Positions 1 to 60,055 of a DNA stretch of 64,000 nt are shown piece after piece. This DNA is from Cyanidioschyzon merolae (Eukaryota). Position numbers and translations under genes: made by a program. Numbering within the stretch: the first letter of the stretch is position 1; the number at the start of each line of letters is the position of its first letter. The notes beneath the pieces were generated by a model. That model was not told the origin of the DNA, made no database searches, and saw only the letters and a list, made by a program, of their open reading frames with translations. Location: the NCBI GenBank assembly GCA_000091205.1, contig AP006498.2; one strand, 5' to 3'.

Positions 1-110
1 TTACTAGGCAAGCGGCTGCCGCTGGTTGTGGCGCGCAGTCCTGCGATTCCATCGCTACCGTACCGCAGTTAACTGGAACGTCTCTCCAATCGCGAAACAG
101 CGAACCCGGG

Positions 111-27734: not shown

Positions 27735-28011
27735 GGTACTCAAACGTAAATCGTCTGTTGCATACTATGCTCAAGATCAGCAAGAAAATAGTGGTTCAAC
27801 GCACAGCGCGTTCGTGCTCCTGCACGCTCTCCAAGTCGAGCGCTCTGAACGAGGCGGCACCTCCGGCTCGCTCGTGATGCGCGTTAACGTTCGAGCGGCG
27901 GTTTCGTGCACGCCCGACACCGCACCATCAACGCCGCTCTAAAGTCGAACGACTTCGGGCGTGTACAGTAGTGGCGGCAACCGTGCCCTAGACTTAAAGT
28001 CTCCAACTGAA

Positions 28012-29092
28012 GTGCAGACGCTTCCTAGGCTTTCTGGACCGGGCACTCACTACTGCTTCCAACTTGTTCTCATATAGTTCGAATTTGAGAGATTGTCCAA
28101 TAAAGTTCATTCTTGTCCGCTCTGGAGGTCTCGTCTCCAGCGCTGCACATCTGCTTATATTGATAGCGGCATTAAAGTCGCGATTCACGAATTCCATGCG
28201 TTTCGTGCCATCATTGGTTGTACTTACCAATGCAAGGAGTCCACGAACTTTCGCCCTCCTTTCCATTTGCTCCTCCGTCAGCGGTCCATACTTTTTTATA
28301 TCTTCAGGGCTCCGCTGTCACTTTTCCATCTCCACTCTCTGAAGTGTACACCCCAGTTCATGCTGTGTATAGGACGTTCGGAACACATCTATCGGTATCG
28401 TGACGAAACGCCGTGCACACTCTTTGTACGTTCTTGTCGTTGGAGCTGGTGTACACCCTTTTTGGGTCTTCCATCGCCCTGCTCCGTACGCGACTACGAG
28501 CGTCTGACTGTCATCCTCCTTCAAGGCGCTCAACTCATTGAAAAAGTTCGCGAACGCCCGCTGTTTCCCACAGTATAGATTCATGCGCAGACGAGCCGGC
28601 CGGGGCTTTGTATATTCTTCCCACAGCGCATCCCAATGCGCAAACCGATCTTCTATGAATTTCCGAAAAGCTGTAAAGCCCGCTCCTCGGCTCGTCACCT
28701 CGCTCATAGCTTCCAGGTGATCTTTCATTCCTGAATTCCACGTACAAATTTTCTTCCTCGCATTCATTATACCGGATCCTCGATAGCATCTTGCTCTCGA
28801 GAACCTCAAAAAGACGCATATCTTTCTGACGTAAGTTACCATCAGTCCCATCTTCCGCACACTTTGGTACAGCGATGGTTATGATATTCGTATTCCCAGG
28901 GTCCACGCCAACGACAAAGTCGTTATCCTGCACCTCCTGCATCGCAGGATCCCCATCATTCTCATCTACATCCTTCGCCGAGCCGTCTACAAGGTTGTAC
29001 TTTTCCACTTCCTGCGTCACAGAATCCGCGTCCTTCTCGTCTATATTCTTCGCCACGGGCGAAGCCGAAGACGGACCAGGAGACGGGCCCAA
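28012..29092 (-). mobile_element. Fanzor/TnpB-like element, copy 1 (5'-truncated, diverged subfamily)
   Basis: Minus-strand ORFs give FVVGVDPGNTNIITIAVPK (RuvC-I), VVAYGAGRW...[29 protein letters not shown]...[14 protein letters not shown], a single in-frame TGA, then [11 protein letters not shown]...EFVNRDFNAAINISRC (RuvC-III). The 3' terminus ...gcgtctgcac lies at 28012 (minus strand). Confidence 0.8.
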
Positions 29093-29999
29093 CGGCGCTG
29101 GAGGCGCAGAAGAACGCGTTTGCCGTTGGCATGGATCCCGGGAACACCCACATCGTTACCATCGCAGCACCCAAGCGTGAGGAAGATGGCTCTGACGGCA
29201 ACTTACGTCAGAAAGACATAAGTCTGTTGAAGCTCTCATGAGCGAGATATTACCGAGAATCCGGTATAATGAATGCAAGGAATAAAAGTGAGACATCGAA
29301 TTCAGGAGTGAAGGGAATTTGGAAGCGATCAGCCGGGTGACGAGCCGCGGAGCCGACATGGAAGCGTTTCGAGAGGCCATGAGCATTCACGCAGCTCATG
29401 ACGAAAGCCTTTGGAAAGAATGCACAAAGTTCAGGTGGGCTCGTCTGCGTATGAACCTGTACTGTTGGAAACAGCGAGCATACGCCAGCTTTTTCAATCA
29501 GTTGAGCGCCCTCAAGGAGGACATGAGCCAAAGGCTCGTAGTAGCATACGGGGCAGGTCGATGGATGCCCCAAAAAGGGTGTACACCAGCTCCAACGACA
29601 AGAACGTACAAGGAGTGCGCACATGGTTATGTCGAAATACCTTTAGATGAGTTTCGAACATCTTCTACACACCACGAGCTGTGTTGTACACTTCAGAGGG
29701 TCGCGATGGAGAAAAGCCAGCGGCTCGCTGACGGAAATGCAAATGGCAAGGAGGGCGAAACTTCGAGGACTACTCGCATTGGTTACTACAACTACTGATG
29801 GCAAGAAACGAATAGAGTTCGTGAATTGAGACTTTAACGCCGCCATCAGTGTAAGGAGGTGTGCAGTACTGGAAAGAAGACCCCCGGAGTTGGCGAGAGC
29901 CAACTTTGCGAGGCAACCTCCCAAAATGGAGTGATACCAGAAGAAGTTGAAACCAGTAGTAGGTGGCCAGTTGCTGAACGCCAGCACAGTCGTCTGCAC
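29080..29999 (+). mobile_element. Fanzor/TnpB-like element, copy 2 (5'-truncated, head-to-head with copy 1)
   Basis: AFAVGMDPGNTHIVTIAAPK ... [48 protein letters not shown] ... RRAKLRGLLALVTTTTDGKKRIEFVN then TGA then DFNAAISV, a stop inside RuvC-III. It ends ...cagtcgtctgcac at 29999 and is about 80% nt identical to copy 1. Confidence 0.8.
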
Positions 30000-30330
30000 A
30001 TCGATGGGTAGACATTCGGTCTACGGCGGACGGTGTGAGAAGCGCCACTCTTGTACACTGGCTTTCCAGCGTTTCTCTTTTGCAAGGCGTTTGGTGGTGT
30101 TTCCAGAGACGAATTGTTTATCAAAAACGTCTTCTGTCGATCTTCGAAACCAACGTGCTGCTTCCTCTGTGCGGCACGGGGCGTACGCTATGCGCTTTTC
30201 TGCTGATTGACAGCGGAAGCGACAAGTCCGGTTACTGCCTTGAAGACTTAGACGCTTTGGAGAGACCATCATATCGATGGTTTCAGTTTTCTGACCTCCT
30301 CCTAACCACCACGCTCGGATCTCTGTTGCA

Positions 30331-31243
30331 ATGGCACGCGCAGCAGCTCTCATGGCAGCCAAAGCTGAACCCGGGCATCGAGAGAGTGGAAAGCTGCATC
30401 AAAGGTGGCGCAAAGCCAAGGAAGCCGGTCATCTGAGCAAGCTTGCATCGCCTGCAGAGCTGCGAGCACTCGTCCATGCGAAACTGACACCCGAGGAGCA
30501 AGTGCTTTCTGGGATGCAGTGTGCAGGGCTGGCAGCCAAGGCACTTGAGGTACTCGACAAGTCGCGTACATCTTTAGAGCAAGACATAGAGTACGAGTCG
30601 TGTGACTGGGAAATAGAATCGGACGATGCCATGGACCGTGTTGCGAGACGATTCCTTGCCGATCTCGAACAGCTAAAGCAGACTGGCAGCACGCGTCGAC
30701 TCACCCAACTCAGTATTTGGCGTCGCATCAGTCGCTAGGTCGTACTGGCGGAAAGGCGAGCATGAACTGCAGGCTGAAGGCAGTCCTTTTGTGAGGCAAG
30801 TCGCGAAGATCGCGGACCAGGCATCCAAGACTCCGGGATACCGCCAGGTCGTTGCCTGGGAGCATCTGGAAGAGCTCGCAGATGCGGCAACTGCAGATGG
30901 TGTATTCGGTTCGCAGTCGCGGTCGATGTCACGTATCTTACGTCGCCCAGAAAGTCGGTTTCGACTCTTGCTCACGAAACTAGAGCTTGGTGAGGAGCTC
31001 TGCACACGCGACGAGCGGCGTTTGATGCTGGCATTGGATACCTCTGATGCGAGATTTGAACCCGAACGCATGCGCTCGAGGAAGAGGGCACCTGGTGGAG
31101 CGCAGGATGGCGCCTCTGCAAAGCGCGACCACGGGAGGTCTGCATCCGTTTCGTCGTCGTCGTCGTCGTCGTCGTTAGAGCCAGAGCACGAGGACGACGT
31201 GCACCGAGCGGCCAAGAACGCGTCTTCTGCGAGAAAGAAATGA
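30331..31243 (+). CDS. hypothetical protein (two adjacent non-repetitive ORFs, possibly one spliced gene)
   Basis: ORFs 30331..30738 and 30791..31243 look protein-like (non-repetitive, balanced composition) and end in a poly-Ser acidic tail. No recognisable domain. Confidence 0.3.
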
Positions 31244-32294
31244 CCACATCATCGGCGACGATCATCCAACAAAAACGAAACCCTGGAGAATCCTCAGTGA
31301 GCCAGCATTTGAGCGAGATTGCCGCTGAATCATCGCCGTGCCCTGGCCCTGTGGATATCGCATGATGCATCGTTTACAGCGTTTCACCCATGATACTGGG
31401 TGGTGATTATCGCCGCCGGAATACCTCAGGACTAGATCGCGGATCGTTGGAAGCTACGCTCGCGTCCATCGCGTGTACCATGTGCTGCAAAAGTGGTGCT
31501 TGTCTGCAGCTCCACAAAGAGCACATGATCGCGTGCTGTGCTGCGAGCACCACGCCGCCGGCCTCTGTCGGCAAACGCGCTCAAAGGCGTACTCGCGACA
31601 AGCATGAATTCAGCAGGAGTATTGGCGCTGGTTGAGGCACTACGACTGACTATCGAGAGACCAATCTCAGCAACCGCAGCATGCGTCGATCACTGGGGCG
31701 CAGCTTAAACTCCAGCAGCGATGCGGCCGCGTCAGAGCCAGACCTGCAGACTAGTGGACAGAGCGCAGCATGCCTCATTCTGGATTTCGCACAAGTACCC
31801 GCCAGAGACGCTTCTCAGGGTAGCCAGTGGCGGATCGCGTCTATTTCGCTACCGGGAATTCGGACGGATTCCGCGTCCAGTCGACCGGGGACGGTTCACG
31901 CTCTCCACTCGGACGTCAACGCGTTTCACTTTGGCGATGAAGGTGCTGCATTCATCCACCGACCAGTCTGCATGACGATTCGACGAACATCGGGCGGAAC
32001 CTTTGATGCATACCTCTGGAGCATGATTCGCAGAGGTGTACTTTTTTGCAGGTCGTCGAGGTGGAGCATGTGGCGAGAGCCACATATTTGAGCGACCTCG
32101 CACCGGGCGTGATCCAAGACACCATTCGGCTGATGCTCAAGCGTGCCTCGCGTACCCGACATGTCGTTGCTCACCTTCGTGATGCTGGTGTGCTTCTGTG
32201 GGTAGCGCACTTGCGCCCGTTTGCGAAGCGTAGCGGACCTTGAGGACAAATGGCACGCTCCAGCAGCCATGCGCTTGCATAGGTCATGCATTCA

Positions 32295-32847
32295 TCATGT
32301 GCTGCTTTCCAAAGCAGCACCCAGGGCGGGGTCATCAAACACGTCGTGGAAATCCCAGAACTGTACATTCCAGCGGGGGTGGTAGCGTCGACACCAGCGC
32401 TCAAACCCCTGGATATATGCGGGTCGCAGGTGCGCATCCAAAGCGTTCCGGAACGCTACCATGGACTCCTCGATGATCGAGGGGTCCATGAGAATGCTCC
32501 CCGACAACGGATCCAGCATCACCTTGACCGGAACATGCTCATAACCCCAGAAAGGCAGTTTCGTCCCGATATCGCCGACCGCTGCCCATCGGAATGAAAA
32601 CGGCACATGTCGCTGGAACGCTGCAGCGAAAGCGCGATTCCCGACTCGAGGCGACCCAAAAGTCACACTCATCACCAGATCCGATGACAGACGCAACGAC
32701 TGTGAATTCTCAAAACACGTCATATCGAGGGCAGCGATGCTTGCCAGAGCCCCGCCGAGAGAGTGACCTCAAAAGATCACCGGTTTGTGGTTGCAAGATG
32801 CACTATCCAAGGAGTTCATCGCACTACACGGTTGCGCTTCGCTCGCA

Positions 32848-32879
<32 letters not shown>

Positions 32880-35353
32880 AGCAGTTTCGCTTCGACACCG
32901 CGCTGCGGTCTCTGTACCCGCTAAGCTCAGCTGCTGTTGCTGCTGCCCGTGTTCACAACCGCCATGAATATCCGCACTGGACACCTCGGGAAAGCGGTTC
33001 GATGGTTGCACGCGCCTATCCAGGCTGGTAGCGACACCACAAGTGGCATCGCCGCAGGTGCTGCTCAAGGGCGCGCAAGCCGCATCCACTGCAGTTGGTG
33101 CAGTGCTCGAGGGCTTCGCAACAAGCGGTTTCAGCGTCTCCATTAACTCTTCACGCACGGATAAATAGGCGTGCAAAAATCCACCGTGCACCATTGAAGG
33201 CACTCGTCGCCCTATGAGATACGAAAAATCGTCACCAGCCTGAGCGCGAAAATCACCAAAGCGCAGGGAACGGATCCCGCGTACGCTCAGCATATACTGC
33301 CACCATCGACGATGTGCAAAACGGCCTCCAGGATCCACACCGAGTTCCTGTGACAGGGCATCATCAAGACCGCGCTCTATATCCGAATCGTCCTTGGCAA
33401 AGGCCTCCACTGATGCCTGGTGCTTCCTAGTCGAATCTATTTCGCGCTTGCTATGTGTTGTGGGCGGTATTTGCGAACAAGTCGCAGCCGAGGTGCCGCT
33501 ACGCCCGGCAGCCAAGGCAGTGGTGCTTACAGCATTCGTCGTACGAGGCATTCGAGTTGTACCGTCGACAGTCGCTTTCGCCGGTGACTCCCGCAACGAC
33601 CCGCGTTGACCGTGTTTGCTGCAGGCGCTCAAGCGCCACGTATCCTGTATTTGCGGACATTCACGTGCATGCAGGTGCTCCTCGAGAGGAACCCGTCGGA
33701 CATTCATATCTGTGCGTAAATTTCTGGTGCTTTTGGTACCGCGAAAGCTCACCACAATCCTATCCGCCAAGTCAATGACGAGCACATGTACATCTGTAAC
33801 GGCGCTGGAGCTATGCCGCACGACTCGTGCTTGCAGGGGGTCCATTTCGCCCACACCATAATGACTGAACATCTCTGCATACATATGCGGGTCATGCCAC
33901 GGTCGATAGGACAGGTACGCCATGTTGAAGATCAAAACATGCGTCTCGAGGACAAGTGAGCGCGAGAGCCAGCTGTCTCCATTTCGCAGTGCTTCCTGCT
34001 CTGTCTGGTAGTAGAGGTTTGCTTTGCGCAGCTCTCGCTCTGCATCCAGTGCGTCCGCTGGCCACGGTGCCGCCTGGCTGGCGCTGTGCGCGGACAACTC
34101 CCACTCGGAGGAAACGCTCCTTTGTGGGGCTCGCTTTTCTTGATATGCAGCTGGGTCCGGAGCCAGCGCAACGATCCAGGGCAGCCAAACACCCAGCACT
34201 GTCGGAGGTAAATGCACATAGAGCAGGAGCACCGACCATGTAAAGAGCATCGCGAAGGCACCACCATTGAATCGTGCAATACCCAGCAACCGCAACGGTA
34301 CGCCATCGAGGGACGCGTTCGCGCCGGGTAATGGTACCAGGCCCACTGCGATGGTATCGTTTGCAATCAGGAATATATAGGATATCGCAGTAAAGACACG
34401 GTAGAAACGAGCACCCATTTGTTTGTGATGACAACAGGTATACGGCAGCTGCTGGAGCACTCGGAAGGTGCGGTAGAGCTCCATGGCAATCCAGCCATCG
34501 AGGAAAATGCGCATGGTAACCACGAGCGCAAACGTAAGCGAGTAGGCCACTTGTTGTTGGTGTCCACGCATAGCAAACTGAACCAACATGCCCGGCCAGG
34601 TGAGTCCTAACGTCGTTCGAGACCAGCCGCAAATGGCTGTCTCCACGGCGGCGATGATCAAACAGAGACCAAATACCACGCGGTTTCGTTCTAGAAACGT
34701 GTGGCGATCCTTAATATCACGATAGAGTCGTAGAATAGCCATGGCGTGTCCATAAAAACCAAATATCCAGAACCATTGCCAGACCAGGTCGGAGACATAG
34801 AGAATGGCGATCGTGGTGCCGCTCGCTTCTCCGATATCGTTCGTGCAATATTGCCTATCATATTCATCGTAAAGAAAATAAATAGACCTTGTAGGAAGCA
34901 GCTGCGCATTTCGAAGGTGCAACGGATCCATCCATACCGATAGAGACGCAAAAAGTAGACGATCGTGAAAGTAAGCTGGAGCACGCAAAAGCAGTACACG
35001 ACGACGCGGTCAACGAGGTTGAGTGCCGGGAGTGCCGCTTCGAAACGGCGTGCAAACAGACTCATTGCTAGCGTGTAGGTGACGGAGAGCACGATTGCAC
35101 TGCATAAGTTGAGAGTTTGCCAAGTTACCTGCTTCGAGGATAGCGTCTCAAGGAGGAACTTGGCTTCCTTTGGATCGCTTCGAATCTGTGGTGGAGCAAA
35201 GAAACTCGACAAACGACTGCGGTGACGTGCACTGCTTCGACGTGTGCGCGTGCCTCGTTCCTGTCCATTGATGAGTTCGCTGCTGCCTCTTAGCGTGCTG
35301 TCTCCAAATGTCTCCGACTCGAACGAGGAGACGGAGGTACCACGATCAGCCAT
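32295..35353 (-). CDS. sn-1 diacylglycerol lipase-like protein (N-terminal multi-TM domain + lipase class 3), multi-exon or with an internal in-frame TGA
   Basis: N-terminal hydrophobic TM segments. Lipase_3 motifs are DRIVVSFRGT, VHGGFLHAY, GHSLGGALASIAAL (immediately 3' of an in-frame TGA at 32769..32771) and FGSPRVGN. A frame change near 34950 and a junk-like Q/A-rich stretch before GHSLGG suggest introns. ATG at 35353 (the track start is TTG). Confidence 0.7.
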
Positions 35354-36004
35354 GAGGGCAGCGTGCAAGCAGAATTAGAGTTGCATATTGTTCGGTACCC
35401 GTGCACTGCGGTGCAGAGTATACGGACCACGAAGCATGAATATGGCAAAGAAGGTTCGTTTTTATGTACGGAGCGGTGCGTATGCGCATCCGCTCACACA
35501 CGTTCACAAGCCCCAAGTCGGATAGCTGAGGATTCCCAAACTGCACTGTACTGCACTGCCGTTCTTGGTCGTTCGAATTCTCTCCATCCAGAAACGCATC
35601 CCATACGGACGCTCGAGACGCTCTCTGCTCACCAGCGCAACTCCATGAGGCTCCATTCCTGCTATGCGTATTCGTATGCTATGTTGATGTGTATAGCAGA
35701 AGGTCGAGATGTAGAAGCAATGTGCTGTATAGATCGTAGTCGAATAGAATGTTAGATACATATTCTCTACTGAACAGTGCAAGGAGGACTGCATTCCTCG
35801 TTCAGGTACGGTTCACCACAGTATTCAGATGGACGAGGAGCACTGGACGGAAGACGTATATGCGCGCGGTGCCGATAACCGACATTTTCAGAGACTGCGT
35901 GCAGTCAATGGTAGCAAACCGCAACCCGTTGATCACTTTATGGGAATCAAAAGCGACGATAGTGGACACCAAGGGCGTCCCTGTTTCTCACCAGCTTGTT
36001 CGTT

Positions 36005-36340
36005 TAGTGCTAAAAACACTGGGATAGAGTCGCAAAAGAAATGTCCGATTTCACCCGTGGCCATCTTCCACCGAAATCGCAGCGGCAGCATTCCCAGTCC
36101 GTTGCGCTCGGTATGAAGCGCAGGAGAGTCGGTTTGTTTTCCCGATTCTAGCGCGGAGTAGAGCTGGTTTCCATTCCCCCGTAAATTCCAAGGTTGAAAC
36201 CCATTGAAAGAGTGTTTTCTATTGTGGAAAGTAATGATCGCTCCGCTGGGCGAGTAAGTAGATCGTTCAGCAAACGGTGACACACCGCGGCGCATGTTGC
36301 CGATCTTCCGCAAGTCCTTCTCGCTTCGGGAAGGTCCTCA
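36005..36340 (+). repeat. dispersed repeat family R2, copy b
   Basis: Homologous to 7815..8450 (aaaacactgg...ccgaaatcgca...atgatcgctccgctgggcgag...ccgcaagtccttctcgct). Downstream sequence contains a segment inverted relative to copy a. Confidence 0.6.
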
Positions 36341-36865
36341 ACTGACGGCCATCAGGGAGTGCGTTCATTTCCACCAGTAGAAATCCATGGGGAGGTATGA
36401 ACATGCAGGTCGGGGGTCCTTGAGGATTGCCATCGTCCCGTCTGTTAAACACCGTTTCTCGTTTATCTCCAGTCTTCTTCCGTTTCTTCGTCACCTGCTC
36501 TTCTTCGCTCGACGGTAGCTTCGAACAAGAAAATTTCGTTTGTTACTCGAACCTGGCGACACCGGGCTTCCAAAATCCCTAGTTGCACATCCATCGCCTT
36601 CAGCTGGATATTTTATTTTCTGAAATGAACCCAATTTCAACGCGTCTACTACAGAACGCAAAAAGGCATGTCACTAGGCGCACCTGCAGTTGGAACCGGA
36701 CTGCGTTGAGATGCTGAATAGGCGGCTTCGCATCGCTTGGGTGCGCGGCGCTGCCGTACTCGTACGTCACAAGGCAGAAAGACTGCGGACGACGCCCGAA
36801 ACATGCGACTGGAATCAAAATCTGGTGCCTTGTAACCGACTCGTAGGTATCGTGTAGCCTGGTTC

Positions 36866-38584
36866 ATGGCCCATAAACAGAAAGCTGGGTGTATTTCCGT
36901 GCTGAAGCGCGGTGTGGAAGCCGAGTTCGCAAAGCTCTTCCACGACGGCGACCTGGAAGCAGCCCGAACCGAGTTGAACGAGTCCGTTCGCGACCTCATC
37001 GTCTGGGAGCGTAACACCGTCTGGCGAGATATGTTGCTCCAGGAGCGTCGGCTTCGAGACACGCACGCCAAGCGAAGCGGCACCCGCGACTCGCCGTTTC
37101 GGGCGTTTCGAGTGGTTCCATTTCTCGTGGCGGTGGTGCTCTTTCTGGGCGTCCTCTTTGCACCGGCATCGCAGTTTATGTTTCTGCAGCGGGCGCTGGA
37201 AGAACGGGAAAATCAGGGTCACCCGATATCGGCAGCTGCCGCAGCTGCACGGAACGCAGCCGCCCAACGCTGCCTCGCGCTGGTCACGTTCGCGTCGGTA
37301 CTCTGGGCCACAGAGGCAGTGCCGCTATTCGTCACCTCGTTGGCAATGCCACTGCTTGCAGTCATTCTACGCGTATTCCTCGACGAGAAAGGTGAGCGGA
37401 CACTCGGACCGACCGAGGCTGCTCACAAGTCCATCACATCCATGAGCAGTCCCGTGCTCCTGCTCATTCTTGGCGGTTACAGTATTTCGGGAGCGCTCAG
37501 CAAGCATGCCATCGACAAGGCGGTAGCGATTGCAGTTTTGCGCCATGCGCGACGACCTCCAGAACTGCTGCTATTACTGATGCTTTTAGCGGTTTTCTTA
37601 TCGATGCTGGTATCGAATGTGGCGGCACCGGTATTGACGGTCGGTATTGTGACACCACTGCTACGCAGCTTGCCACCAGGGACTCCCTTTATCAAGTGTG
37701 CGCTGCTCGGTGTCGCCGCAGCTTGTAACGTAGGCGGCATGACCTCGCCGATCGCGTCTCCGCAGAATGCGATCGCGTTGGATGCCCTGCGCGGTGCCGC
37801 GTCCATCTCTTTTCGCCAATGGGTAGCGATAGCGCTGCCGCTTGCTCTGGTTACCGTATTTGTGATGCATGCGTACTTAATCGTTCGTTTTGGACGCGGC
37901 CCGATGCAAGCGTTTCCACTGATTCCTATGCATAGTCCGCTGAAATGGAAGGATACTGGGATGGCGCACTTGGTTGTCATTCTGACGGTTCTGGTCACTG
38001 TGGCGCTCTGGAGCAGCAAAACTGTTTCGGATCGATTCGGTGGGGACGGCATTGTTGCCCTCGTACCTGTGGTGGTGTTCATGGGCACTGGTCTTTTGAG
38101 CAAGGAGGATTTCAATGCGCTACCTTTTAATGTTATCTATTTGGTGTCCGGCGGCGTCGTGATGGGCGCTGCCGTTCGATCCAGCCGCTTGCTGGAGCTC
38201 GTGGCCGCATCCGTGCATTCCGCAGTGGTTGGCGCCGGCCTCTACAAGACCTATCTGACCTTTATGCTGATGACACTTCTTGTGGCGTGCATTATGAGCC
38301 ACACGGTTTCCAGTATCATTCTGAGTCCCGTTTTAGCCGAGCTTGGCGCAGCGCTTGGTCATCCACGGCTCATGGTGCTGGGAGGTGCACTGGCGTGTTC
38401 CTGTGCAATGGCACTGCCCGTGTCAAGCTTCCCGAACATGGCCGTGATCAGCGTCGAAGATGAGCTCGGGAATCCTTATTTAAGTGCTCGCGATTTCGTA
38501 TGGGTAGGCTTTCCTCTGACGTTGCTCGCGGGCGCAGCACTGGCGAGTCTCGGCTATGTGCTTTCGTTTTACGCTGGCCTGTGA
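36866..38584 (+). CDS. anion permease of the ArsB/NhaD/CitMHS (DASS/SLC13-like) superfamily
   Basis: ATG at 36866. About 12 predicted TM helices. Motif [22 protein letters not shown] (SNxAxP-type). Internally duplicated hairpin-like halves. Soluble N-terminal domain of about 70 aa. Confidence 0.75.
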
Positions 38585-38589
38585 GCGCC

Positions 38590-40092
38590 ACGACCAGCTC
38601 GCTATCCTGCATATGCTGCGTTGCAGGATCCGCCTGATCTTTTTCTGCACGATTCGTCACGGGCGATATCGAATACGGACCAGGACGATCCGCTTTCAAG
38701 CGCCGATAGTGTACACACATGGCTACGCCATCGGCTTCGATCATCCCAGTGAATACCTTTTGCTTGCTGGCTTTGAGACGCTTGAAGTCGAAGATATTCA
38801 TCCAGTGCGTCTCCCCGTTTTCACCGGTGAACTCCTCCGTGCTGACATCGAACTCCGGGCTGATCTCTCTCATGATCCCGTAAAGGACGCCGGAGTCGAT
38901 TGTCACAAAATGTGACTTGATGTTGCACAACGGAACGACGTTGAAGCGCTTACCCATTAGGAAAGCATCCCGTCTCTCCGACTTTTCATTTTTTCCCCGA
39001 CTCAGCTGCTCTTCGGCGTTGCGTTCGAGTTCTCGGTTCCGAAACAAGAAACAGCTTAGGATGACGGGATAACATCTTTTTTTCATTTCTGATACATTTT
39101 CTACGGGATTGACTGGCCCAAAACTGCACGGTGCTCCTGTATAGCCGCACGGATTACAGAAGCTTCATTTGTGCTGCTGTGTGACGTCTTCTTGTCGACG
39201 AATTCGATCTCCTGTCCACTCTGGCGATCGTTCGTGATACAATTGATGATGCCCCACATCCCTTTGCGCGAGATGCCCGGGTAGAGCGCAAAGATAGATC
39301 GTACCACGAAGCGTTCGAGGTTCACGGTCAGATGGTTCTTCAGGTTCGTCAGGTACTTCATGGGCACTTAGAACTAAATATTCGAGTCATGCCTGTATCG
39401 AGTACCGTTGAAGCGGTACTTGGGGCATTTTTCGTGGAGGGCATATACTCGCGCATTTCGCTTCTACGCTTCCCCCGTGCCAAACATCAAGTGACGAATA
39501 AAGGTCTTGTCGAAAAATTCTTCCGGAACCTCTTCTGTTTCCATGCCCGTCACGTCGCGATACATATCCCTCGCGATATGCATCAGTCCTACGGCAGCGT
39601 CTCATACACTCATAGAGTGCGCCTCGAAACGGGTTCTGATGGCCTCTTGGGGCTTTTCCCTGTGCGGTTCTTTGATGTGTTTCAGAAGACAGGCTTTCAC
39701 CAGCATCTCGTAATATGATCGTCTTTCTCGCATCCATTGACGTCGGGCATCCCGCTGTCGCTTCTTCGACCTGTCTCGTTCCGCTTTGCTCGGCTCTGGT
39801 TTTCATTTTTCTCCGGCAGCCGGCGACGCCGGGCCTCCAGCATCCTCCACTTCCATTTCCATTACTTTCCATTGCTATGATAAGAATGCACTTTGGAAGC
39901 GTCTACTGTAAACTACGAAAAATCACTTGACTAGAGTACTGTAAGGGCTGAAACACGAATGAATCGCAAGACTATACTTTGCTATGACGTCAACGCAAAT
40001 ACGACTTGAACCTAAAGTACAACAACAAGTTAGCGAATGATCAGGATCGCAATTCCCTTCAAAAGCGAGATACGCGTCGAGTCTGATGCCTT
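38590..40092 (-). mobile_element. Fanzor/TnpB-like element, copy 4 (5' part only; truncated at its 3' side exactly at the permease stop codon)
   Basis: About 97% nt identical to copy 3 (58360..59362) over 1.5 kb. Contains ORF-A MKYLTNLKNHLTVN... and the N-terminal 212 aa of the nuclease ORF (MKKRCYPVILSCFLF...KADRPGP). Homology to copy 3 stops at 38590, 6 bp after the transporter stop at 38584. The 5' boundary (gtctgatgcct) is shared with copy 3. Confidence 0.8.
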
Positions 40093-40824
40093 CCAGACAC
40101 AGACGTGAGCGTAACGACAGCATTAAATGGAACAAAGAATAGAAACTCACTACTAACTAGCAATCCGATAGGAATTTCGTTTCCCACTACGATCGACGTT
40201 AAAAGGGGGAAAAGCTTGCCGTATCTTCGAAGGTTGATCTTCGAGGTGGAAAGTCTCGCGAGCCGGACGAATCCCCAGTGCTTGTGCTTCGTGCTCCACC
40301 CAGAGTCAGGTGATTTGGCGAGATCTGAGCAACTAATCCACAACGCAGTTTATTCTCGAACTAGGGGCAGTTGATGTGCCTCTGGGCGTCGCCCTGGTCG
40401 CAGTGGACTCTTAGTATATTGCTGCGCGCTGCCGCAGACAGACGTACTGTCTGCGCAGCTTGCGGACTCCCAGAATGATGATGTACGCCGACTCCGTGTC
40501 GATTGCAACACATCTCGAGCCGACGCCCTCAGTGGTACGGAAAAACCGTTCTGTCTCCGTGCAGCACCCGCTTCAGCGGTATAAGCGCTACGGCGAGTGC
40601 TCACGGCAGGCAGTCGTCGCAGGATAGAACATACGAAACGACCAGCGTATCCCAGAGGAATTGTAAGTAATGGAACCTGGAAGTAGGGTGCAGCATGGTG
40701 GACGATCACATGAATCTTAAAGCCCATCCCGGATTTCGGACTCCTTGGTCCATGGAAACGTTTTGTCATCATAAGAGCAGGAAATCGCTGACAGCGTTGA
40801 CGTAGCAGGCGCCACGCACGTGCA

Positions 40825-43197
40825 ATGCCGCTCGAGCGCGCCTGCAGCGCTTCTCCCGGTGCACAGGATGCGCTGGCGGATGCTCCAGCTCGTGTGCGAC
40901 TAGCTGGGAACGCTGCAGGTACGTCTAGACAGGCTCTTCTGCGAAGAGTTATGCCAGAGACTACCCGTTTATTTCGCGTAAAGCAGAGGTCTTGTGGTGC
41001 GAATTCGCTACCTTGTATCTTGCGCTCGTCACCGATAACGTTTGTTTTTCTACAGAGCGGCGGCGCTTTAACACAGGGAACTGCTCGCTCTGCGGGCGCT
41101 CGTGTAGCGTTCCGGCTCAGAGCGCGTGCCGCTCTGTCATCGCTTGCACAACCAGCGCGCCTTGCATGGACGTGCGCTGGGCAAAAACAGGTCCAGTTTC
41201 AAGCTACGTGCTCGCGAGTCGGGTTTCTGGGTCGGTTTCCGTCACGCAAGGCGATCTCGCAAGCAGCGCGTCGGTGCAGCAGGTTACGTATGGCGGGCGT
41301 TAGCGCTGACGGCCAAGCGCGCTTGCAGAGTCGACGCGAGCGTGCCATAGCCCTGCTCAAGCGGCTCAAAGAACTCGCGGTTCCGTTCTGGACCGAGCCG
41401 AGCAGTCGCAACGCCGCGTGGCGGTGGACACTGGGAACACTGGCGCTGGCGTTCGTCTGCACCCTCTATGCCGTTTCGTTGTCGTTCATTCAGCGCTTCT
41501 TCTGGAACGCGTTGAACGCGAAGGATGCGGTGAAGTATCAAAAATTCTTGGTTCTCTACGTTGCGGCACTCATCGCAGGGCCCCCGTTTCTGACGCTGTT
41601 CGAGTGGATGAGACAACGAACCGCCCTGGTGTGGCGTCGCTTCCTCACCGAGCGCCTTCTCGGCGGATACTTCCATGACCGCAAGTATTATACAATCAAT
41701 ATTCTGCGATTACAGAACAATGAGACCGTTCATGCAACGCCAGCGACGTCCGCAGGTGGCGTTCGTGTCGTGCAAGATGCTCTCGATAACGTCGACCAGC
41801 GAATTAGCGAGGACATTCGCGCGTTTACGGAACGTGCCGTTGGATTCGGATGCACCGTGGTGATCGCATTATTTGACTTTTTACTGTTCAGCGTGATTTT
41901 GTTCCGCATCCGCGCACAGCTGTTTCTGCTGCTTGTGCTGTACTCGACCATTGGGACGGCGGTGACGTTGTGGCTAGGCGGCCGACTCGTGCACCTGAAT
42001 TTCGCCCAGCTCCGACGAGAAGCAGATTTTCGGTACGCGCTTGTTCGCGTTAGAGAGAATGCCGAGTCGATCGCGTTCTACGGCGGCGAGGAACAGGAGC
42101 AGCGCGCAGTCTCGCGTCGGTTCCGGGCCCTCTTCGACAATATGATCCAACTGCTGCGATGGCAACGGAACGTGACCTTTGCAACGACCTGGTATCGCTA
42201 TCTGATCCAGGTGGTACCCGCTCTGGTCGTCAGTAGGGACTACTTTTCTGGTCGCATACCGCTAGGTGCATTGAGCCAAGCGTTTTTCAGCTACAATCAT
42301 GTGCTGAACGACTTGTCCCTGGTTGTGAATGAATTCGTCGGCCTTTCTGCGTTCGCTGCCGCAGTGAATCGGCTCTATGAATTGCACTGCGCTGTGGAGC
42401 CGCGGCTGCTCGCTGGTCAGCGCCACGAGCGAGACGCCGGGTCACAGGCCGACACGGAAGGCATCGTGACGCTGACAGGGAACGGCACGGCTGCTGGCGT
42501 CAAGCCAGCAGCTTTGCGTCTGGAGAAGCTGACGATCTACACACCCGAAGGCCGACGGCGGCTCGTTGACCAGCTGGATCTCATGCTTGAGGATGGCGCA
42601 CGCATCTTGCTCATGGGTGAGAGCGGCGTGGGCAAGTCGTCCACGGTGCGGGCAATCGCCGGCCTCTGGAAACGGGGCAGCGGCGTCGTGTACCGGCGCC
42701 CGCATCCGCGGAATACGCTTTTCGTTCCCCAGCGGCCGTATTTGATGTTGGGCACCCTCCGCGAGAATCTCTTTTATCCGCTGCATGGAGAGGATGCGGC
42801 CAACGTTGATGAGAAGACGATTCGGAACGTTCTGGTGCGCGTCAACCTGCCCGACCTTGTAGATCGATTAGGCGGACTCGACGTCGAAGCCGACTTTGCC
42901 GCCATTCTTTCGCTTGGCGAGCAACAACGGCTTGCATTTGCGCGCCTTTTACTGCAGCCGGAGCCTGTGCAGCTTGCGATTTTGGATGAATCAACCAGTG
43001 GCTTGGATGTCGAAAACGAACGCCGTCTCTATGAGCTCTTGCGGGAGATGGGTATTAGCGTGTTGAGTGTTGGGAATCGGCCGACGCTCATCCGGTACCA
43101 CAATCAAGTTATCCGGCTTTTTGCCAATGGCAGTTGGCAAATCGAATCGCCATCAGAGGCGGTAGAGCACCTCCTCGGCAGCAGCTTGCTTGATTAG
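40825..43197 (+). CDS. ABC transporter subfamily D (peroxisomal ALDP/PXA-type half transporter)
   Basis: ATG at 40825. TMD followed by NBD. ABCD signature NVDQRISEDIRAFTE, Walker A GESGVGKSS, C-loop LSLGEQQRLAFARLL, Walker B AILDESTSGLD. Confidence 0.9.
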   Translation: MPLERACSASPGAQDALADAPARVRLAGNAAGTSRQALLRRVMPETTRLFRVKQRSCGANSLPCILRSSPITFVFLQSGGALTQGTARSAGARVAFRLRARAALSSLAQPARLAWTCAGQKQVQFQATCSRVGFLGRFPSRKAISQAARRCSRLRMAGVSADGQARLQSRRERAIALLKRLKELAVPFWTEPSSRNAAWRWTLGTLALAFVCTLYAVSLSFIQRFFWNALNAKDAVKYQKFLVLYVAALIAGPPFLTLFEWMRQRTALVWRRFLTERLLGGYFHDRKYYTINILRLQNNETVHATPATSAGGVRVVQDALDNVDQRISEDIRAFTERAVGFGCTVVIALFDFLLFSVILFRIRAQLFLLLVLYSTIGTAVTLWLGGRLVHLNFAQLRREADFRYALVRVRENAESIAFYGGEEQEQRAVSRRFRALFDNMIQLLRWQRNVTFATTWYRYLIQVVPALVVSRDYFSGRIPLGALSQAFFSYNHVLNDLSLVVNEFVGLSAFAAAVNRLYELHCAVEPRLLAGQRHERDAGSQADTEGIVTLTGNGTAAGVKPAALRLEKLTIYTPEGRRRLVDQLDLMLEDGARILLMGESGVGKSSTVRAIAGLWKRGSGVVYRRPHPRNTLFVPQRPYLMLGTLRENLFYPLHGEDAANVDEKTIRNVLVRVNLPDLVDRLGGLDVEADFAAILSLGEQQRLAFARLLLQPEPVQLAILDESTSGLDVENERRLYELLREMGISVLSVGNRPTLIRYHNQVIRLFANGSWQIESPSEAVEHLLGSSLLD

Positions 43198-43687
43198 AGC
43201 CAACACCGGCTCGCCTGGCTTTTGCGAGTGTTTCTGGAGCGTATGCCGCAGCACGAACTGCGCTGTCGTCTGAGCACTGAAGCCGCAAAGCACGAAGGCT
43301 AGTCGTGCGCGTCTCGGCCTGGGCGCTGGGTTCGTTTGGCGCAAAGCTCTAAGGATGCTTTGCGCAAGACCAAGCGAGTTTTCGTTATATGAACGCGGGT
43401 CGTCAGCTGTGCACACCAGTTACACCCGTGCTTCGTACCCAGTGACATAAAGCTATCGCTGGCGCCGCGCGGAGCGAAGAAAATTACCAGACGCGATGGC
43501 TCGTTGGTTGCAAACCAAGGCGCCCCGCACGCAGTTCCGGTGCTCTTACCAGCAGGCTATGTGGCACCCGCGCAGTTCGTGTGAACGCCGCTCGGGCAGG
43601 TTGCGCTGGGCGCCGAGCGCTGGCCACACCATGGGACGCAAGGCAGCTGCTGCGGTAGCGAGGCATCACCCACCGGCTATGGAGCAA

Positions 43688-43918
43688 CCGTACATGATCC
43701 CGCAGAATACAGATTGTTTGGCGCGCTTTTCTTGCTCACTTCGGCGCACGCTGATCAAATCAGGAACCGTACATGATCCCGCAGAATACAGATCTTTTGG
43801 CGCGCTTTTTTTCGCTCACTTCGGCGCACACTGATCAAATCAGGAACCGTAAATGATCCCGCAGAATACAGATCTTTTGGCGCGCTTTTTTTCGCTCACT
43901 TCGGCGCACGCTGATCCA
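43688..43918. repeat. tandem repeat, ~80 bp unit x3
   Basis: ccgtacatgatcccgcagaatacagat(t/c)ttttggcgcgc(t)ttttt(c)gctcacttcggcgcacgctgatcaaatcaggaa repeated three times. Confidence 0.7.
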
Positions 43919-54558: not shown

Positions 54559-54836
54559 GGCATTCTAAAATGCTCTTTGTCGAGTATAGCTCCATTTCAG
54601 GATTTCATTCGTATGCTGGATCATGACGGCATCCTAGCATGCTCTTTGTCGAGTATAGCTCCATTTCAGGATTTCATTCGTATGCTGGATCATGGCGGCA
54701 TTCTAGCATGCTCTTTGCCGAGTATAGCTCCGTTTCAAGGTTACAGCAGTTTGCTGGATCATGACGGCATTCTAGCATGCTCTTTGCCGAGTACAGCTCC
54801 GTTTCAGGATTTCATTAGTCTGCTGGATCATCGTCC
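54559..54836. repeat. tandem repeat, 69 bp unit x4
   Basis: ggcattctaaaatgctctttgtcgagtatagctccatttcaggatttcattcgtatgctggatcatgac repeated four times with increasing divergence. Confidence 0.75.
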
Positions 54837-56838: not shown

Positions 56839-56954
56839 GGCGTCCAGTATGTCAGCTTCGAGAAGCGCAATGGCGCTGAATGAGTGCTTGCATCTGGAGC
56901 GTCGGGAACGCGGCGAGAACGTTCCGCGAACACACAGGGTAAATGGGTACCGAC

Positions 56955-59362
56955 GTGCAGACGTCTCCCAGTGTTTTTTGACCGGCCATCTACTACTGCC
57001 TCCAACTTATTCTCATCTAGTTTGACTTTGAGAGGTTGTCCAACAAAGTAGGCTCTCGACAGCTCGGGAGGTCTTTTTTCTCCATCACCACACATCTCCT
57101 GATATGGATAGCAGCATGAAAGTCACGATTCACAAACTCGATACATTTCTTGCCGCCGATGGTGGTTGTACTCAGTAATGGAAGGAGTCCTCGAACTTTC
57201 GCCCTCCATTCCATTTGCTCTGCAGTCAAGGCTCCGTACGTTTTTATATAACCTCAGGATTCCGCTGACACTTTTGCATCTCGACCCTCTGAAGTGTGCA
57301 CCGAAGCTCTTGGTGTATAAACGATGCTCGGAACTCATCTATGGGTACTGTGACAAATCGCCTCGCACACTCCGGGTACGTTCTTGGCGTTGCAGCTGGT
57401 GTGCTCTCTTTTTTCGACCCCCAGCGCCCTGCTCCGTATGCTACGACCAGCCTCTGACTTTCATCTCCTTTGAGGGCGCTCAACTCATTGAAAAAGTTCG
57501 CGAATGCACGCTGCTTCCCACAGTACAAGTTCAGACGCGGACGAGCCCGCCTGGGCATTGTATATTCTTTCCACAGCGCATTGCCATGAGCAACGCGAGT
57601 TTTGATGAATTCTCGAAAAGCTCGAAAGTCCGCTCCACGACTGGTAACATCGCGAATAGCTTCCAGGTGCTGTTTCGTGCCTGGATTCCATTTCTCAATT
57701 CTCTTCCTCGCACTCGTGAATCCCGATTCTCGATAGTATCTCGCCCTCGAGAACCTCAAAAGACGCATGTCTCTCTGGAAAAAGTTACCGTTGATACCAT
57801 ATTCCGCACGCTTGGGTACAGCGTTGGTTATTGTAGTCGCGTTCTCCGGGTCCGCGCCAACGACAAACTCGTTCTCCTGTACCTCCTGCGTCGCGGAATC
57901 CGCCTGATCGTTTTCTGCACGATTCGTCACAGGCGATATCGGAAACGGACCAGGAGGATCCGCTTTCAAGCGCCGATAGTGTACACACATGGCTACGCCA
58001 TCGGCTTCGATCATCCCAGTGAATACCTTTTGCTTGCTGGCTTTGAGACGCTTGAAGTCGAAGATATTCATCCAGTGCGTCTCCCGGTTTTCACCGGTGA
58101 ACTCCTCCCTGCTGACATCGAACTCCGGGCTGATCTCTCTCATGATCCCGTAAAGGACGCCGGAGTCGATTGCCACAAAATGTGACTTGATGTTGCACAA
58201 CGGAACGACGTTGAAGCGCTTACCCATTAGGAAAGCCTCCCGTCTCTCCGTCTCTTCATTTTTTCCCCGACTCAGCTGCTCTTCGGCGTTGCGTTCGAGT
58301 TCTCGGTTCCGAAACAAGAAACAGCTTAGGATGACGGGATAACATCTTTTTTTCATTTCTGATACATTTTCTACGGGATTGACTGGCCCAAAACTGCACG
58401 GTGCTCCTGTATAGCCGCACGGATTACAGAAGCTTCATTTGTGCTGCTGTGTGACGTCTTCTTGTCGACGAATTCGATCTCCTGTCCACTCTGGCGATCG
58501 TTCGTGGTACCATTGATGATGGCCCACATCCCTTTGCGCGAGATGCCCGGGTAGAGCGCAAAGATAGAGCGTACCACGAAGCGTTCGCGGTTCACGGTCA
58601 GATGGCTCTTCAGGTTCTTCAGGTACTTCATGGGCACTTAGAACTAAATATTCGAGTCATGCCTGTATCGAGTACCGTTGAAGCGGTACTTGGGGCATTT
58701 TTCGTGGAGGGCATGTACTCGCGCATTGCGCCTCTACGCTTTCCCCGTGCCAAACATCAAGCGACGAATAAAGGTCTTGTCGAAAAATTCTTCCGGAACC
58801 TCTTCTGTTTCCATGCCCGTCACGTCGCGATACATATCCCTCGCGAGATGCATCAGTCCTACGGCAGCGTCTCATACACTCATAGAGTGCGCCTCGAAAC
58901 GGGTTCTGATGGCCTCTTGGGGCTTTTCCCTGTGCGGTTCCTTGATGTGTTTCAGAAGACAGGCTTTCACCAGCATCTCGTAATATGATCGTCTTTCTCG
59001 CATCCATTGACGTCGGGCATCCCGCTGTCGCTTCTTCGACCTGTCTCGTTCCGCTTTGCTCGGCTCTGTTTTTCATTTTTCTCCGGCAGCCGGCGACGCC
59101 GGGCCTCCAGCATCCTCCACTTCCATTTCCATTACTTTCCAGTGCTATGATAAGAATGCACTTTGGAAGCGTCTACTGTAAACTACGAAAAATCACTTGA
59201 CTAGAGTACTGTAAGGGCTGAAACACGAATGAATCGCAAGACTATACTTTGCTATGACGTCAACGCAAATACGACTTGAACCTAAGGTACAACAACAAGT
59301 CAGCGAATGATCAGGATCGCAATTCCCTTCAAAAGCGAGATACGCGTCGAGTCTGATGCCTG
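56955..59362 (-). mobile_element. Fanzor/TnpB-like element, copy 3 (near full length, ~2.4 kb)
   Basis: 5' boundary shared with copy 4 (gtctgatgcct). 3' terminus ...gacgtctgcac at 56955 is shared with copies 1 and 2. Encodes ORF-A (58371..58634), the nuclease ORF 57244..58356 (MKKRCYPV...[20 protein letters not shown]...VVAYGAGRW...[19 protein letters not shown]...[15 protein letters not shown]), then frame-shifted segments [38 protein letters not shown] (57017..57229) and ...RPPELSRAYFVGQPLKVKLDENKLEAVV (third frame). AT-richer than the flanking host genes. Confidence 0.8.
57017..58634 (-). pseudogene. Fanzor/TnpB-like RuvC nuclease coding region of copy 3 (frame-disrupted or spliced)
   Basis: RuvC-I-like G-A-D-P-E at ~57850. 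TnpB-like 'V.P.D.F.R-S' motif before a Cys/His cluster. Ruv[14 protein letters not shown]. At least two frame discontinuities relative to copy 1. Confidence 0.7.
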
Positions 59363-59467
59363 CCAGATATGGAGATGCGGGTATCGACCGCGCTATATAG
59401 AAAAATAGGGAGAGATACTAGCCCCTAACCAGCAACTAGATAACAGTTTGCTCCCGCTCCACGGAAA

Positions 59468-60055
59468 GCATTGAAAGAGGGAAACGTTCTCCGTATTTAC
59501 GAAAGTTTATCGCCAAAGCGGAAGCGCCCTAGAGACGGACGAGTCAACGGTGATTGTACTTTGTAGGCATCTATAGTGCCGGGTGCTGAAGAGAGATCTG
59601 AGCAGAACGTCTGCAACGAAGATTACGCTGAGAAGAGCAGCGAACAGGATGCATCTAGACATCGCCCGAGACCCGATCGTCTCCGAGCATACCGCTTCGC
59701 GCTGCCGCAGGCAGTAGGCAGCAGGCCTTTCTGCACGGCTTTCCAGCTCCCAGAATGATCATGAATCCCGATGCCGTGTCGGGTGAACGATACCTCCAGC
59801 TGACGTCCTCAGTCATATGGCAATGCCTCGCAGTCTCTGTGCAGCATTCGAATCATCGGTATAGGCACTTTTGCTGACCATCAAGGCAACCTCGGTGCAC
59901 AATAGAACGTACGAAATAACCAGTACATCCGATAAAAAGTACAAGTCATGGAACTTGAAGGTAGCGTGCACCATGATGGATACGTTCACCGAATGCCAAT
60001 ATCTAATCACGGAATCAACGATGAATGGTCAATGTACGTTTTCTATCCAGCAAAA
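59468..60055 (+). repeat. non-coding dispersed repeat, copy C (same family as A/B)
   Basis: gggaaacgttctccgtatttacgaaagtttatcgccaaagcgg...caatgtacgttttctatccagca is about 97% identical to B and to the reverse complement of A. It lies about 105 bp outside the 5' end of Fanzor-like copy 3. Confidence 0.85.

Follow-up and report, generated by a model that had tools for sequence, protein, structure and literature searches.

The 3' flank of a phosphate transporter gene in Cyanidioschyzon merolae consists of a dead fragment of CMe-1A, a transposon family that is already known and published. We analysed a 64,000-nucleotide stretch of contig AP006498.2 (the window), in which this fragment, copy 4, begins directly behind the transporter stop codon. 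Our preferred reading, to which we assign a probability of about 0.6, is that copy 4 is an old, fixed and dead CMe-1A (Fanzor1) remnant, shaped by insertion, by later deletion, and by conversion with another copy in the window, copy 3. The junction between gene and element is real and old, but ordinary.

The transporter coding sequence (36866..38584, plus strand) specifies a Pho91p-like low-affinity phosphate transporter of 572 amino acids with a CitMHS domain, as concluded from the ORF listing and from a Pfam match at E = 3.5e-28. The protein is identical in 572/572 residues to XP_005537731.1/BAM81695.1 of C. merolae 10D, and its C-terminus is intact, with the same final residue as in the orthologues from Cyanidiococcus, Cyanidium and Porphyridium. 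Its coding sequence differs from those of environmental strains at 5-9 of 1719 nucleotides, with no internal stops, and ends with a TGA at 38582-38584. Self-BLAST places the start of the similarity to copy 3 at 38585, which pairs with 57854 and is the first base past this stop. The initial annotation had set the start at 38590, 6 bp past the stop, and thus missed the position slightly while correctly describing a truncation exactly at the stop codon. Across the junction, the minus strand of copy 4 runs ...GAGCTGGTCGTGGCGC|TCA, and copy 3 has ...GAGTTTGTCGTTGGCGCGGAC (VVGAD) at the equivalent place. Microhomology at the junction amounts to at most 0-1 nt.

The junction CTGTGA|GCGCCACGACC is identical in all seven independent JGI metagenome contigs (L001 and L006-L011), which fall into two SNP groups and share 95.0-99.4% identity with the window overall, the lowest value (95.0%) being that of L008. 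Two of them, L010 and L011, extend over transporter, element and downstream ABC transporter gene and are collinear with the window throughout. That the join of gene and repeat is a mis-assembly through repeated sequence is next to impossible in the face of this base-identical junction and this collinearity. Assemblers can cross between copies, as L008 illustrates by switching to a copy-3-type 5' module at the transporter locus; since the window sequence is matched by L007, L010 and L011, we take this contig to be a probable metagenome chimera.

The next gene downstream (40951..43197, plus strand) encodes an ABC transporter of subfamily D and matches XP_005537732.1/BAM81696.1 of C. merolae 10D exactly, so that both flanking proteins assign the window to this strain. 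Since this accession is adjacent to that of the transporter, no annotated feature appears to lie between the two genes. The order of transporter and ABC-D gene is syntenic with Cyanidiococcus, and the search for an empty site proposed initially yielded two related Cyanidiales loci that keep the gene order and carry no element. In Cyanidiococcus yangmingshanensis (L002) the transporter is followed by a 639-bp spacer with no CMe-1A match, and at the locus of GCA_041825655.1 (L003) the transporter is present with no CMe-1A sequence within 827 bp. Element-like sequence is thus missing from both orthologous loci, and the refuting condition named initially does not arise there.

We compared the window with the 3169-bp CMe-1A consensus (Additional file 2 of PMC3627910) by BLAST and found positions 40770-38585 to align with consensus 2-2194 at 81.9% identity. 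Copy 4 (38585..40770, minus strand, consensus 2194 down to 2) therefore has a complete 5' terminus, from consensus position 2, located 180 bp upstream of the annotated ABC-D start codon. It lacks consensus 2195-3169 (975 bp), and thereby its RuvC half, its 3' terminus and whatever omega-RNA region there may be; copy 4 is a family fragment, not a complete CMe-1A member. As initially proposed, the element lies antisense to the transporter and supplies the gene's whole 3' flank, its 2186 bp filling most of the 2366 bp that separate the stop codon from the annotated ABC-D start. The retained length had been put at 1.5 kb; the element-derived tract is longer, since similarity to copy 3 goes on past 40091 to about 40770, there at only 62-64%.

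The 5' module of copy 4 (40092..40770, minus strand) is 80% identical to CMe-1A consensus 1-635 and corresponds to TE-N2_CMe, a 635-bp non-coding sequence that also exists as a separate element (Bao & Jurka 2013, PMC3627910). Solo copies of the module are found in the window at 13119-13756 and 14631-15275. Unlike TE-N2_CMe, the module in copy 4 is joined to Fanzor coding sequence, and it is only 62% identical to copy 3 and to the solo modules. It belongs to an old subfamily different from that of the copy 3 module. We considered whether the module might be a pre-existing target repeat, the true element end then being at 40091, and ruled this out because the module makes up positions 1-635 of the published consensus and because the switch in identity lies at consensus ~680, not 635. 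A stretch within the module resembles a tRNA T-arm; a tRNA reading was dropped, as neither ARAGORN nor Rfam returned a match, the Rfam scan of the whole window included.

The initial assignment of the repeat to Fanzor elements is borne out by a profile of the 66-member protein family, which matches the central and RuvC regions of the Fanzor1 structures from Parasitella parasitica (9cf0, E = 8.6e-24), Spizellomyces punctatus (8gkh, 4.3e-16) and Guillardia theta (9cer, 1.2e-9), with no other match at E <= 10. The window copies map onto the CMe-1A consensus, and CMe-1 had been classed as Fanzor1 before (Bao & Jurka 2013, PMC3627910). PF07282 (OrfB_Zn_ribbon) is reached by 14 of the 66 members. 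The RuvC positions D, E and D can be traced in the family alignment, with D441 and E619 invariant and D691 present in at least 90% of the 66 sequences. The likeness becomes visible only with this deep profile: neither the window ORFs nor their close relatives were assigned to a family by direct Pfam and NCBIfam scans, a profile of 11 sequences found no match in the PDB, and an AlphaFold2 model built from 11 sequences (mean pLDDT 34.5) is unusable. In contrast to the solved Fanzor1 proteins, the CMe-1 consensus and the window copies retain only part of the zinc-finger cysteines, others being replaced (TSYTHHELGC... and ...LALVSTT). Copy 4 lacks this region and keeps nothing of the catalytic part.

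In tblastn, family protein P0121 aligns with copy 4 over residues 3-231 and 224-406 in two frames, across which the roughly 400 Fanzor codons that are kept are split. The coding region starts at 39862-39860 (minus strand) and is interrupted by five in-frame stops (39805, 39604, 39466, 39376 and 39370) and by a frameshift near 39103-39128, leaving no intact Fanzor ORF in the retained part. Copy 4 ends partway through the codons for GADPG, the RuvC-I motif, and keeps none of the three RuvC catalytic residues. The remnant is presumably unable to act as a nuclease or to move. Two open frames singled out in the initial annotation can be read in this light. The 212 codons credited to the nuclease ORF correspond to an open frame of 212 amino acids (38448..39086, minus strand), of which only the first 167 codons are Fanzor-derived, the last 45 being sequence antisense to the transporter 3' end. 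It starts at an internal Met downstream of the frameshift within the pseudogene, and we see no evidence that it is a gene. ORF-A (39387..39872) is not a second gene: it coincides with part of the sequence coding for the Fanzor N-terminus, read in another frame.

Copy 3 (56949..60042, minus strand, consensus 8-3092) is a nearly full-length CMe-1A pseudogene that carries the RuvC motifs GADPE, IDEFRAS and NRDFHAA in a frame broken by stops and frameshifts. Comparing its segment 57854-59980 with copy 4, we recovered the 97% identity reported initially (1456/1500, or 97.1%, over 38586-40085), as an average that is not uniform along the copy. Expressed in consensus positions, the two copies are 62% identical over 1-635, 67% over 636-680, 98.7% over 681-905, 97.9% over 906-2140 and 70% over 2141-2194; on the window, identity drops sharply at 40091/40092. 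An internal tract (38628..40091, minus strand) that is ~98% identical to copy 3 (about 57898-59361) is a putative ectopic gene-conversion tract. It is bounded at the junction by a diverged terminal piece (38585..38627, minus strand), which represents the end of the 75-bp repeat unit of the element and where we estimate ~65% identity to copy 3 by eye from the alignment. A 75-bp tandem array is present at this position in other family copies, and non-equivalent repeat units may have been aligned over the last ~43 bp, which would account for the low identity there. The portion corresponding to consensus 2141-2194 is as distant from the CMe-1A consensus (70%) as from copy 3.

This mosaic speaks against the initial description of copy 4 as recent, in which a copy-3-like element would have jumped into the transporter 3' UTR and been quickly truncated, its 97% identity dating the insertion. 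The 97.1% over 38586-40085 and the complete 5' terminus at consensus position 2 would fit such an event. The near-identity, however, is confined to the internal ~1.46 kb, the flanks being only 62-70% identical to copy 3 (62% in the 5' module and 70% in the last 54 bp). The five in-frame stops and the frameshift are moreover common to both copies, at a constant offset of 19270 bp, and the source of the tract must therefore have been dead already. In addition, the junction is fixed in all seven environmental contigs, which differ from the window by 0.6-5% overall, and the 5' module stands at 80% to the consensus, as is usual for the family. A recent transposition is thus largely refuted, and we regard it as improbable. 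The 97-98% identity to copy 3 would instead be due to ectopic gene conversion. The environmental contigs carry copy 3 bases near the edge of the tract: L007-L009 differ from the window at eight sites between 38602 and 38681, where the variant is the copy 3 base in four of the eight, and at a ninth site, 38686, L001 and L006 also have the copy 3 base. Gene conversion is inefficient where the flanks are only 62-70% identical, and the mosaic may alternatively reflect a recombinant element formed before insertion.

According to our preferred history, a full-length element would have inserted into the short spacer between the transporter and ABC-D genes after the split of C. merolae from Cyanidiococcus. 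In a later deletion the element would have lost its 3' third, RuvC domain and 3' terminus included, and the native 3' UTR would have gone entirely. One end of this deletion would lie in the internal zone of 75-bp repeats and a hairpin just upstream of RuvC-I, and the other may have stopped at the stop codon because further loss would damage a gene under purifying selection. Ectopic gene conversion could have homogenised ~1.46 kb in the interior of two copies, 19 kb apart, both of which were dead by that time. A deletion that ends exactly at a stop codon still involves chance; given a compact genome and some 220 copies of the family, such coincidences should, by a rough estimate, be on the order of one genome-wide. 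The 10D assembly contains ~150 CMe-1A and ~70 TE-N2_CMe copies. An intermediate state, for example a full-length element behind the transporter gene, was not found, and insertion followed by deletion is therefore indistinguishable from insertion of an already truncated copy.

In a rival scenario, copy 4 never was full-length at this locus: a double-strand break beside the stop codon would have been repaired by copying another CMe-1A from its 5' end, with synthesis aborting in the 75-bp repeat zone and the product being sealed by homology-free end joining. The absence of the native 3' UTR and the junction microhomology of no more than 0-1 nt are compatible with this scenario, and strand dissociation is plausible in a zone of repeats and hairpins. 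DNA repair by homologous recombination is reportedly efficient in C. merolae, as known from gene targeting, which we count in its favour. The scenario does not account, however, for the much stronger divergence from copy 3 of the 5' module and of the terminal 43 bp relative to the middle; for this, a later conversion would have to be assumed in addition. We consider it unlikely.

Other truncated copies in the window bear on the position of the break. The first consensus position of copy 2a is ~2093 and that of copy 2b ~2110, and other family copies contain three to four tandem 75-bp units in the break zone. The clustering of breakpoints in the repeat and hairpin zone is suggestive, with the qualification that 2a and 2b may stem from a single event. 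Truncation points among the gene calls of family proteins are uninformative in this respect, as these calls begin at arbitrary Met codons or contig ends. The order and orientation of copy 2a (27961-29081) and copy 4 would fit two halves of one element, separated by 9.5 kb. We rejected a split element as unparsimonious, because gene order agrees with Cyanidiococcus to either side of the transporter and because the layout seen today cannot be reached by a simple rearrangement.

Transposon-derived 3' UTRs and poly(A) sites occur in eukaryotic genes. In our case the element fragment lies directly past the coding sequence and so must carry the mRNA 3'-end signals, which we infer to reside in element-derived DNA. 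In C. merolae, 93% of primary poly(A) sites have UAAA as their signal, located 3-35 nt ahead of the cleavage point (PMC8831791). A pattern scan locates the first UAAA past the transporter stop at 38881..38884 (plus strand, +297 nt), within the element. This candidate signal, which occurs at the same offset in all four contigs that reach it (L007, L008, L010 and L011), may be used by the transporter gene. On the other side, the upstream region of the ABC-D gene would lie at the 5' end of the element.

Such an arrangement raises the question of exaptation, in which the remnant would be kept because it acts as transporter 3' UTR or terminator, gives rise to a regulatory antisense RNA, or forms the ABC-D promoter region. 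It is the only sequence between both genes, the +297 UAAA is conserved in offset, and every contig sampled shares the arrangement; such fixation is equally expected, however, of a neutral old insertion. Strain divergence is 0.3-0.5% in the transporter coding sequence and 1-8% in the element, which diverges 2-20 times faster than the flanking coding sequences, and the 100 bp right past the stop form the most variable stretch (7-8%). Unlike transposon-derived 3' UTRs in general, the element part of copy 4 hence displays no sequence constraint in the strain comparison, and a retained function has only a slim chance of being correct. A still more elaborate double co-option, in which the predicted UAAA (38881-38884) would be supplied to the transporter while antisense RNA from the old promoter reaches into its 3' end and modulates it, with recurrent conversion by copy 3 reshaping the region, seems improbable to us.

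Copy 4 resembles the CMe-1A elements described from the same genome in its lack of terminal inverted repeats and in its distance to the consensus, ~80% identity being typical of family copies (Bao & Jurka 2013, PMC3627910). It departs from the consensus in being a 3'-truncated pseudogene and a mosaic whose internal tract is 98% identical to another copy. Individual insertion sites are not described in that work. The present site illustrates that in the compact, transposon-poor genome of C. merolae a transposon fragment can replace the 3' flank of a gene and nearly the whole spacer, leaving both genes unharmed. The overall importance of the finding is small, and its relevance is mainly to studies of transposon decay. 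Dead CMe-1A copies appear to swap internal tracts by gene conversion, and if they do, insertion dates derived from copy-to-copy identity are misleading for this family. Truncated copies, finally, seem to break preferentially within a single short zone of repeats and a hairpin that immediately precedes RuvC-I.

We aligned the 3169-bp consensus of the transposon CMe-1A (Additional file 2 of PMC3627910) to the window and located a remnant, copy 4 (40770-38585, minus strand; consensus 2-2194, 81.9% identity to the consensus), between the Pho91p-like transporter gene and the ABC-D gene downstream. When the window was compared with itself, 38585-40702 paired in the same orientation with 57854-59980, a stretch of the nearly full-length pseudogene copy 3 (60042-56949, minus strand; consensus 8-3092, 81%); identity is 93.3% for the initial 1711 bp and 87.8% for 2131 bp. 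The transporter TGA ends at 38584, and the similarity therefore starts one base past the stop codon. The initial annotation was right that the repeat is truncated at this stop but had placed the start of homology at 38590, 6 bp after it. The junction reads CTGTGA followed directly by GCGCCACGACC in 7/7 JGI metagenome contigs (L001 and L006-L011), four of which were recovered with a degenerate pattern covering the final eleven codons of the transporter and three by exact-protein look-ups. These contigs share 95.0-99.4% overall identity with the window, the lowest value being that of L008, and the junction is common to two contig groups separated by several SNPs. L010 and L011 are collinear with the window from the transporter through the element to the next gene (98.7-98.8% identity). 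The junction observation is correct and robust; an assembly error is ruled out by its presence in all seven contigs and by the collinearity of L010 and L011 throughout.

Direct Pfam and NCBIfam scans gave no match for the family of the repeat. A word-indexed search yielded 49 relatives, which come almost entirely from JGI metagenomes and some of which carry the precomputed domain DUF8286, and an exhaustive profile search returned 2436. In an alignment of 66 members, the catalytic motifs are DPG, DEFRT and NRD.NAA.NI, with Asp-441 (D441) and Glu-619 (E619) invariant and Asp-691 (D691) nearly so (at least 90%). The resulting profile matched PDB chains of three kinds only, all Fanzor1, from Parasitella (E = 8.6e-24), Spizellomyces (4.3e-16) and Guillardia (1.2e-9); PF07282 was reached by 14/66 members. 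These matches, together with the alignment of the published consensus, uphold the original Fanzor label. The element family has been known since 2013, in the C. merolae genome itself (Bao and Jurka, PMC3627910). About 150 CMe-1A copies are present there, showing about 80% identity each to a ~3-kb consensus; the element lacks terminal inverted repeats, its target-site duplications are not known, and its 5' 635 bp are also found as a separate element, TE-N2_CMe, in about 70 copies (PMC3627910).

Copy 4 is complete at its 5' terminus. It ends at consensus 2194 within GGC GCG GAC, codons of the RuvC-I motif GADPG, so that none of the three catalytic motifs is retained, nor the zinc-finger region or the 3' end. 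Its Fanzor frame begins at 39862 and contains five in-frame stops (39805, 39604, 39466, 39376 and 39370), followed by a frameshift near 39103-39128; an 88-aa ORF (39101..39367) is a piece of this frame. The previously proposed ORF-A (39387..39872) is not a separate gene, as it overlaps the Fanzor N-terminal coding region in a different frame, and the reported 212 nuclease codons (38448..39086) comprise 167 Fanzor codons past the frameshift and 45 codons antisense to the transporter.

The 97% identity first reported between copies 4 and 3 was reproduced by base-by-base alignment (1456/1500 = 97.1% over 38586-40085), though it is unevenly spread. It is about 65% over 38585-38627 (estimated by eye from the alignment), about 98% from 38628 to 40091, and about 62-64% from 40092 to about 40770, with a sudden fall at 40091/40092. 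By consensus module, identity is 62% (1-635), 67% (636-680), 98.7% (681-905), 97.9% (906-2140) and 70% (2141-2194); some 1.46 kb of near-identical internal sequence is thus flanked by ends that are old and diverged. All five stops and the frameshift recur in copy 3, shifted by a constant 19270 bp, and the shared sequence was therefore dead before it was shared. These common lesions, the diverged ends and the fixation of the junction in all seven contigs speak against the initial description of copy 4 as recent. The near-identical tract appears to reflect ectopic gene conversion, the two old copies being separated by 19 kb. In the L007-L009 group, 8 sites from 38602 to 38681 differ from the window, the variant being copy 3's base at 4/8, and at a ninth site (38686) copy 3's base is also found in L001 and L006. 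Strain divergence is 7-8% in the first 100 bp past the stop, 1-2.6% in the remaining tract and 0.3-0.5% in coding sequences. Gene conversion fits both this tract-edge polymorphism and the elevated divergence past the stop. The comparison of element with coding sequences gave no sign of constraint on the remnant. In L008 (contig Ga0207433_10040788, 4785-5307), the same junction is followed by a copy-3-type 5' module, unlike the diverged module of the window, L007, L010 and L011; this contig is either a chimeric assembly across the 98%-identical tract or a true strain variant produced by a longer conversion.

An empty site, suggested earlier as a check, was found. The Cyanidiococcus yangmingshanensis contig is syntenic over window ~19-50 kb and runs from the transporter through 639 bp to the ABC-D gene; neither this locus nor that in GCA_041825655.1 carries CMe-1A sequence, which places the element's arrival in the C. 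merolae lineage. On the transporter's 3' side the native 3' UTR is wholly gone, and 2186/2366 bp up to the annotated ABC-D start are element-derived, so that the element does supply the gene's 3' flank, as originally proposed. On the simplest path, a CMe-1A element would have inserted into the short transporter/ABC-D spacer, and a deletion would then have taken away its 3' third and the native 3' UTR, with selection on the transporter coding sequence setting the gene-side limit. Alternatively, an already truncated copy may have inserted through aborted repair synthesis. The break on the element side coincides with the end of a 75-bp unit (25 aa), which occurs in 3-4 tandem copies directly upstream of RuvC-I in other family members. 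About 80 bp separate this break from a short, perfect hairpin of the consensus, GCTTCGCC-CGT-GGCGAAGC. The 5'-truncated copies 2a and 2b begin at consensus ~2093 and ~2110. That three breakpoints of a 3.2-kb element fall inside 100 bp is suggestive of a fragile zone but is no proof of one, because 2a and 2b may stem from one event. Copy 4 is an ordinary decayed transposon copy, and its neat boundary at the stop codon is probably a coincidence. It is common for a gene's 3' flank to derive from a transposon, and the conversion tract and breakpoint zone are side issues of minor weight. Tandem 75-bp units (3-4) are seen in CMe-1A-family ORFs of two metagenome contigs (L004, 7149-7449; L005, 6465-6691), and their number varies in the family, the consensus having a single unit and copy 2a two.

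The transporter ORF (36866..38584, plus strand; TGA at 38582-38584) encodes 572 aa with a CitMHS domain, 572/572 identical to XP_005537731.1/BAM81695.1 of Cyanidioschyzon merolae 10D, annotated as 'probable low-affinity phosphate transporter Pho91p'. Its C-terminal residue is the same end point as in the Cyanidiococcus, Cyanidium and Porphyridium orthologues; the stop has therefore kept its ancestral position, and the coding sequence is intact. The following ORF, taken from 40951 (40951..43197, plus strand), exactly matches XP_005537732.1/BAM81696.1 (ABC transporter, subfamily D), and from the adjacent accessions of the two proteins we infer that no feature is annotated between their genes. 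At 93% of the primary sites in C. merolae, UAAA serves as the poly(A) signal and lies 3-35 nt upstream of cleavage (PMC8831791). The first UAAA past the transporter stop lies within the element at 38881-38884 (+297), an offset kept in 4/4 contigs that extend so far. Judged from sequence, the 3' end of the transporter mRNA, if the gene is expressed, would have to lie in element DNA. The element 5' end is 180 bp from the ABC-D start codon.

A 130-bp CMe-1A scrap (36664-36534, minus strand; consensus 841-967, 70% identity) lies ~200 bp upstream of the transporter start codon, and with copy 4 downstream transposon debris thus flanks the gene on both sides. The spacer that separates the transporter from the SPX-domain gene (27738-36865) measures 9.1 kb versus 729 bp in Cyanidiococcus. 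It holds transposon remnants and a long minus-strand ORF (32769-34988 and 34691-35368), which has a weak Lipase_3 match in 32769-34988 and is missing from the syntenic Cyanidiococcus locus. Copies 2a (27961-29081, minus strand; 28979-27961 aligned to consensus 2120-3137, 88.7%) and 2b (29048-30089, plus strand; consensus 2110-3169, 77%) consist of the RuvC half and 3' end and form a head-to-head palindrome, whose axis near 29055 coincides with the consensus hairpin. Because the two arms share only 73% identity and differ in identity to the consensus, they may come from different subfamilies.

Copy 3 is also a mosaic, its 5' module being 96% identical to each of two solo, TE-N2_CMe-like modules at 13-15 kb and only 71% to the CMe-1A consensus. 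These modules, 1a (13119-13756, plus strand; consensus 8-634, 73%) and 1b (15275-14631, minus strand; consensus 4-635, 73%), share 99% identity and lie inverted to each other, their inner ends facing across a gap of 875 bp, a pattern that resembles homogenisation through gene conversion or else a recent inverted duplication. Another small Fanzor/CMe-1A scrap, a C-terminal protein-level remnant at 8662-8835 (plus strand), is 47% identical to residues 693-751 of the family protein P0121.

A second dispersed repeat (7501-8438 and 35670-36334) is 70-74% identical between its two copies, one of which lies just upstream of the transporter in a stretch also present in metagenome contigs. A weak DDE_3 transposase match (E = 0.016) in its ORF 8085-8381 suggests that the repeat is a decayed Tc1/mariner/IS630-like element. 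A tandem array of a 97-bp unit (21214-22070; 8.8 copies, 98% matching) lies between the PsbW-like and HATPase-domain genes, and smaller arrays are found at 3995-4161 (84 bp x 2), 43686-43916 (80 bp x 2.9) and 54558-54831 (69 bp x 4).
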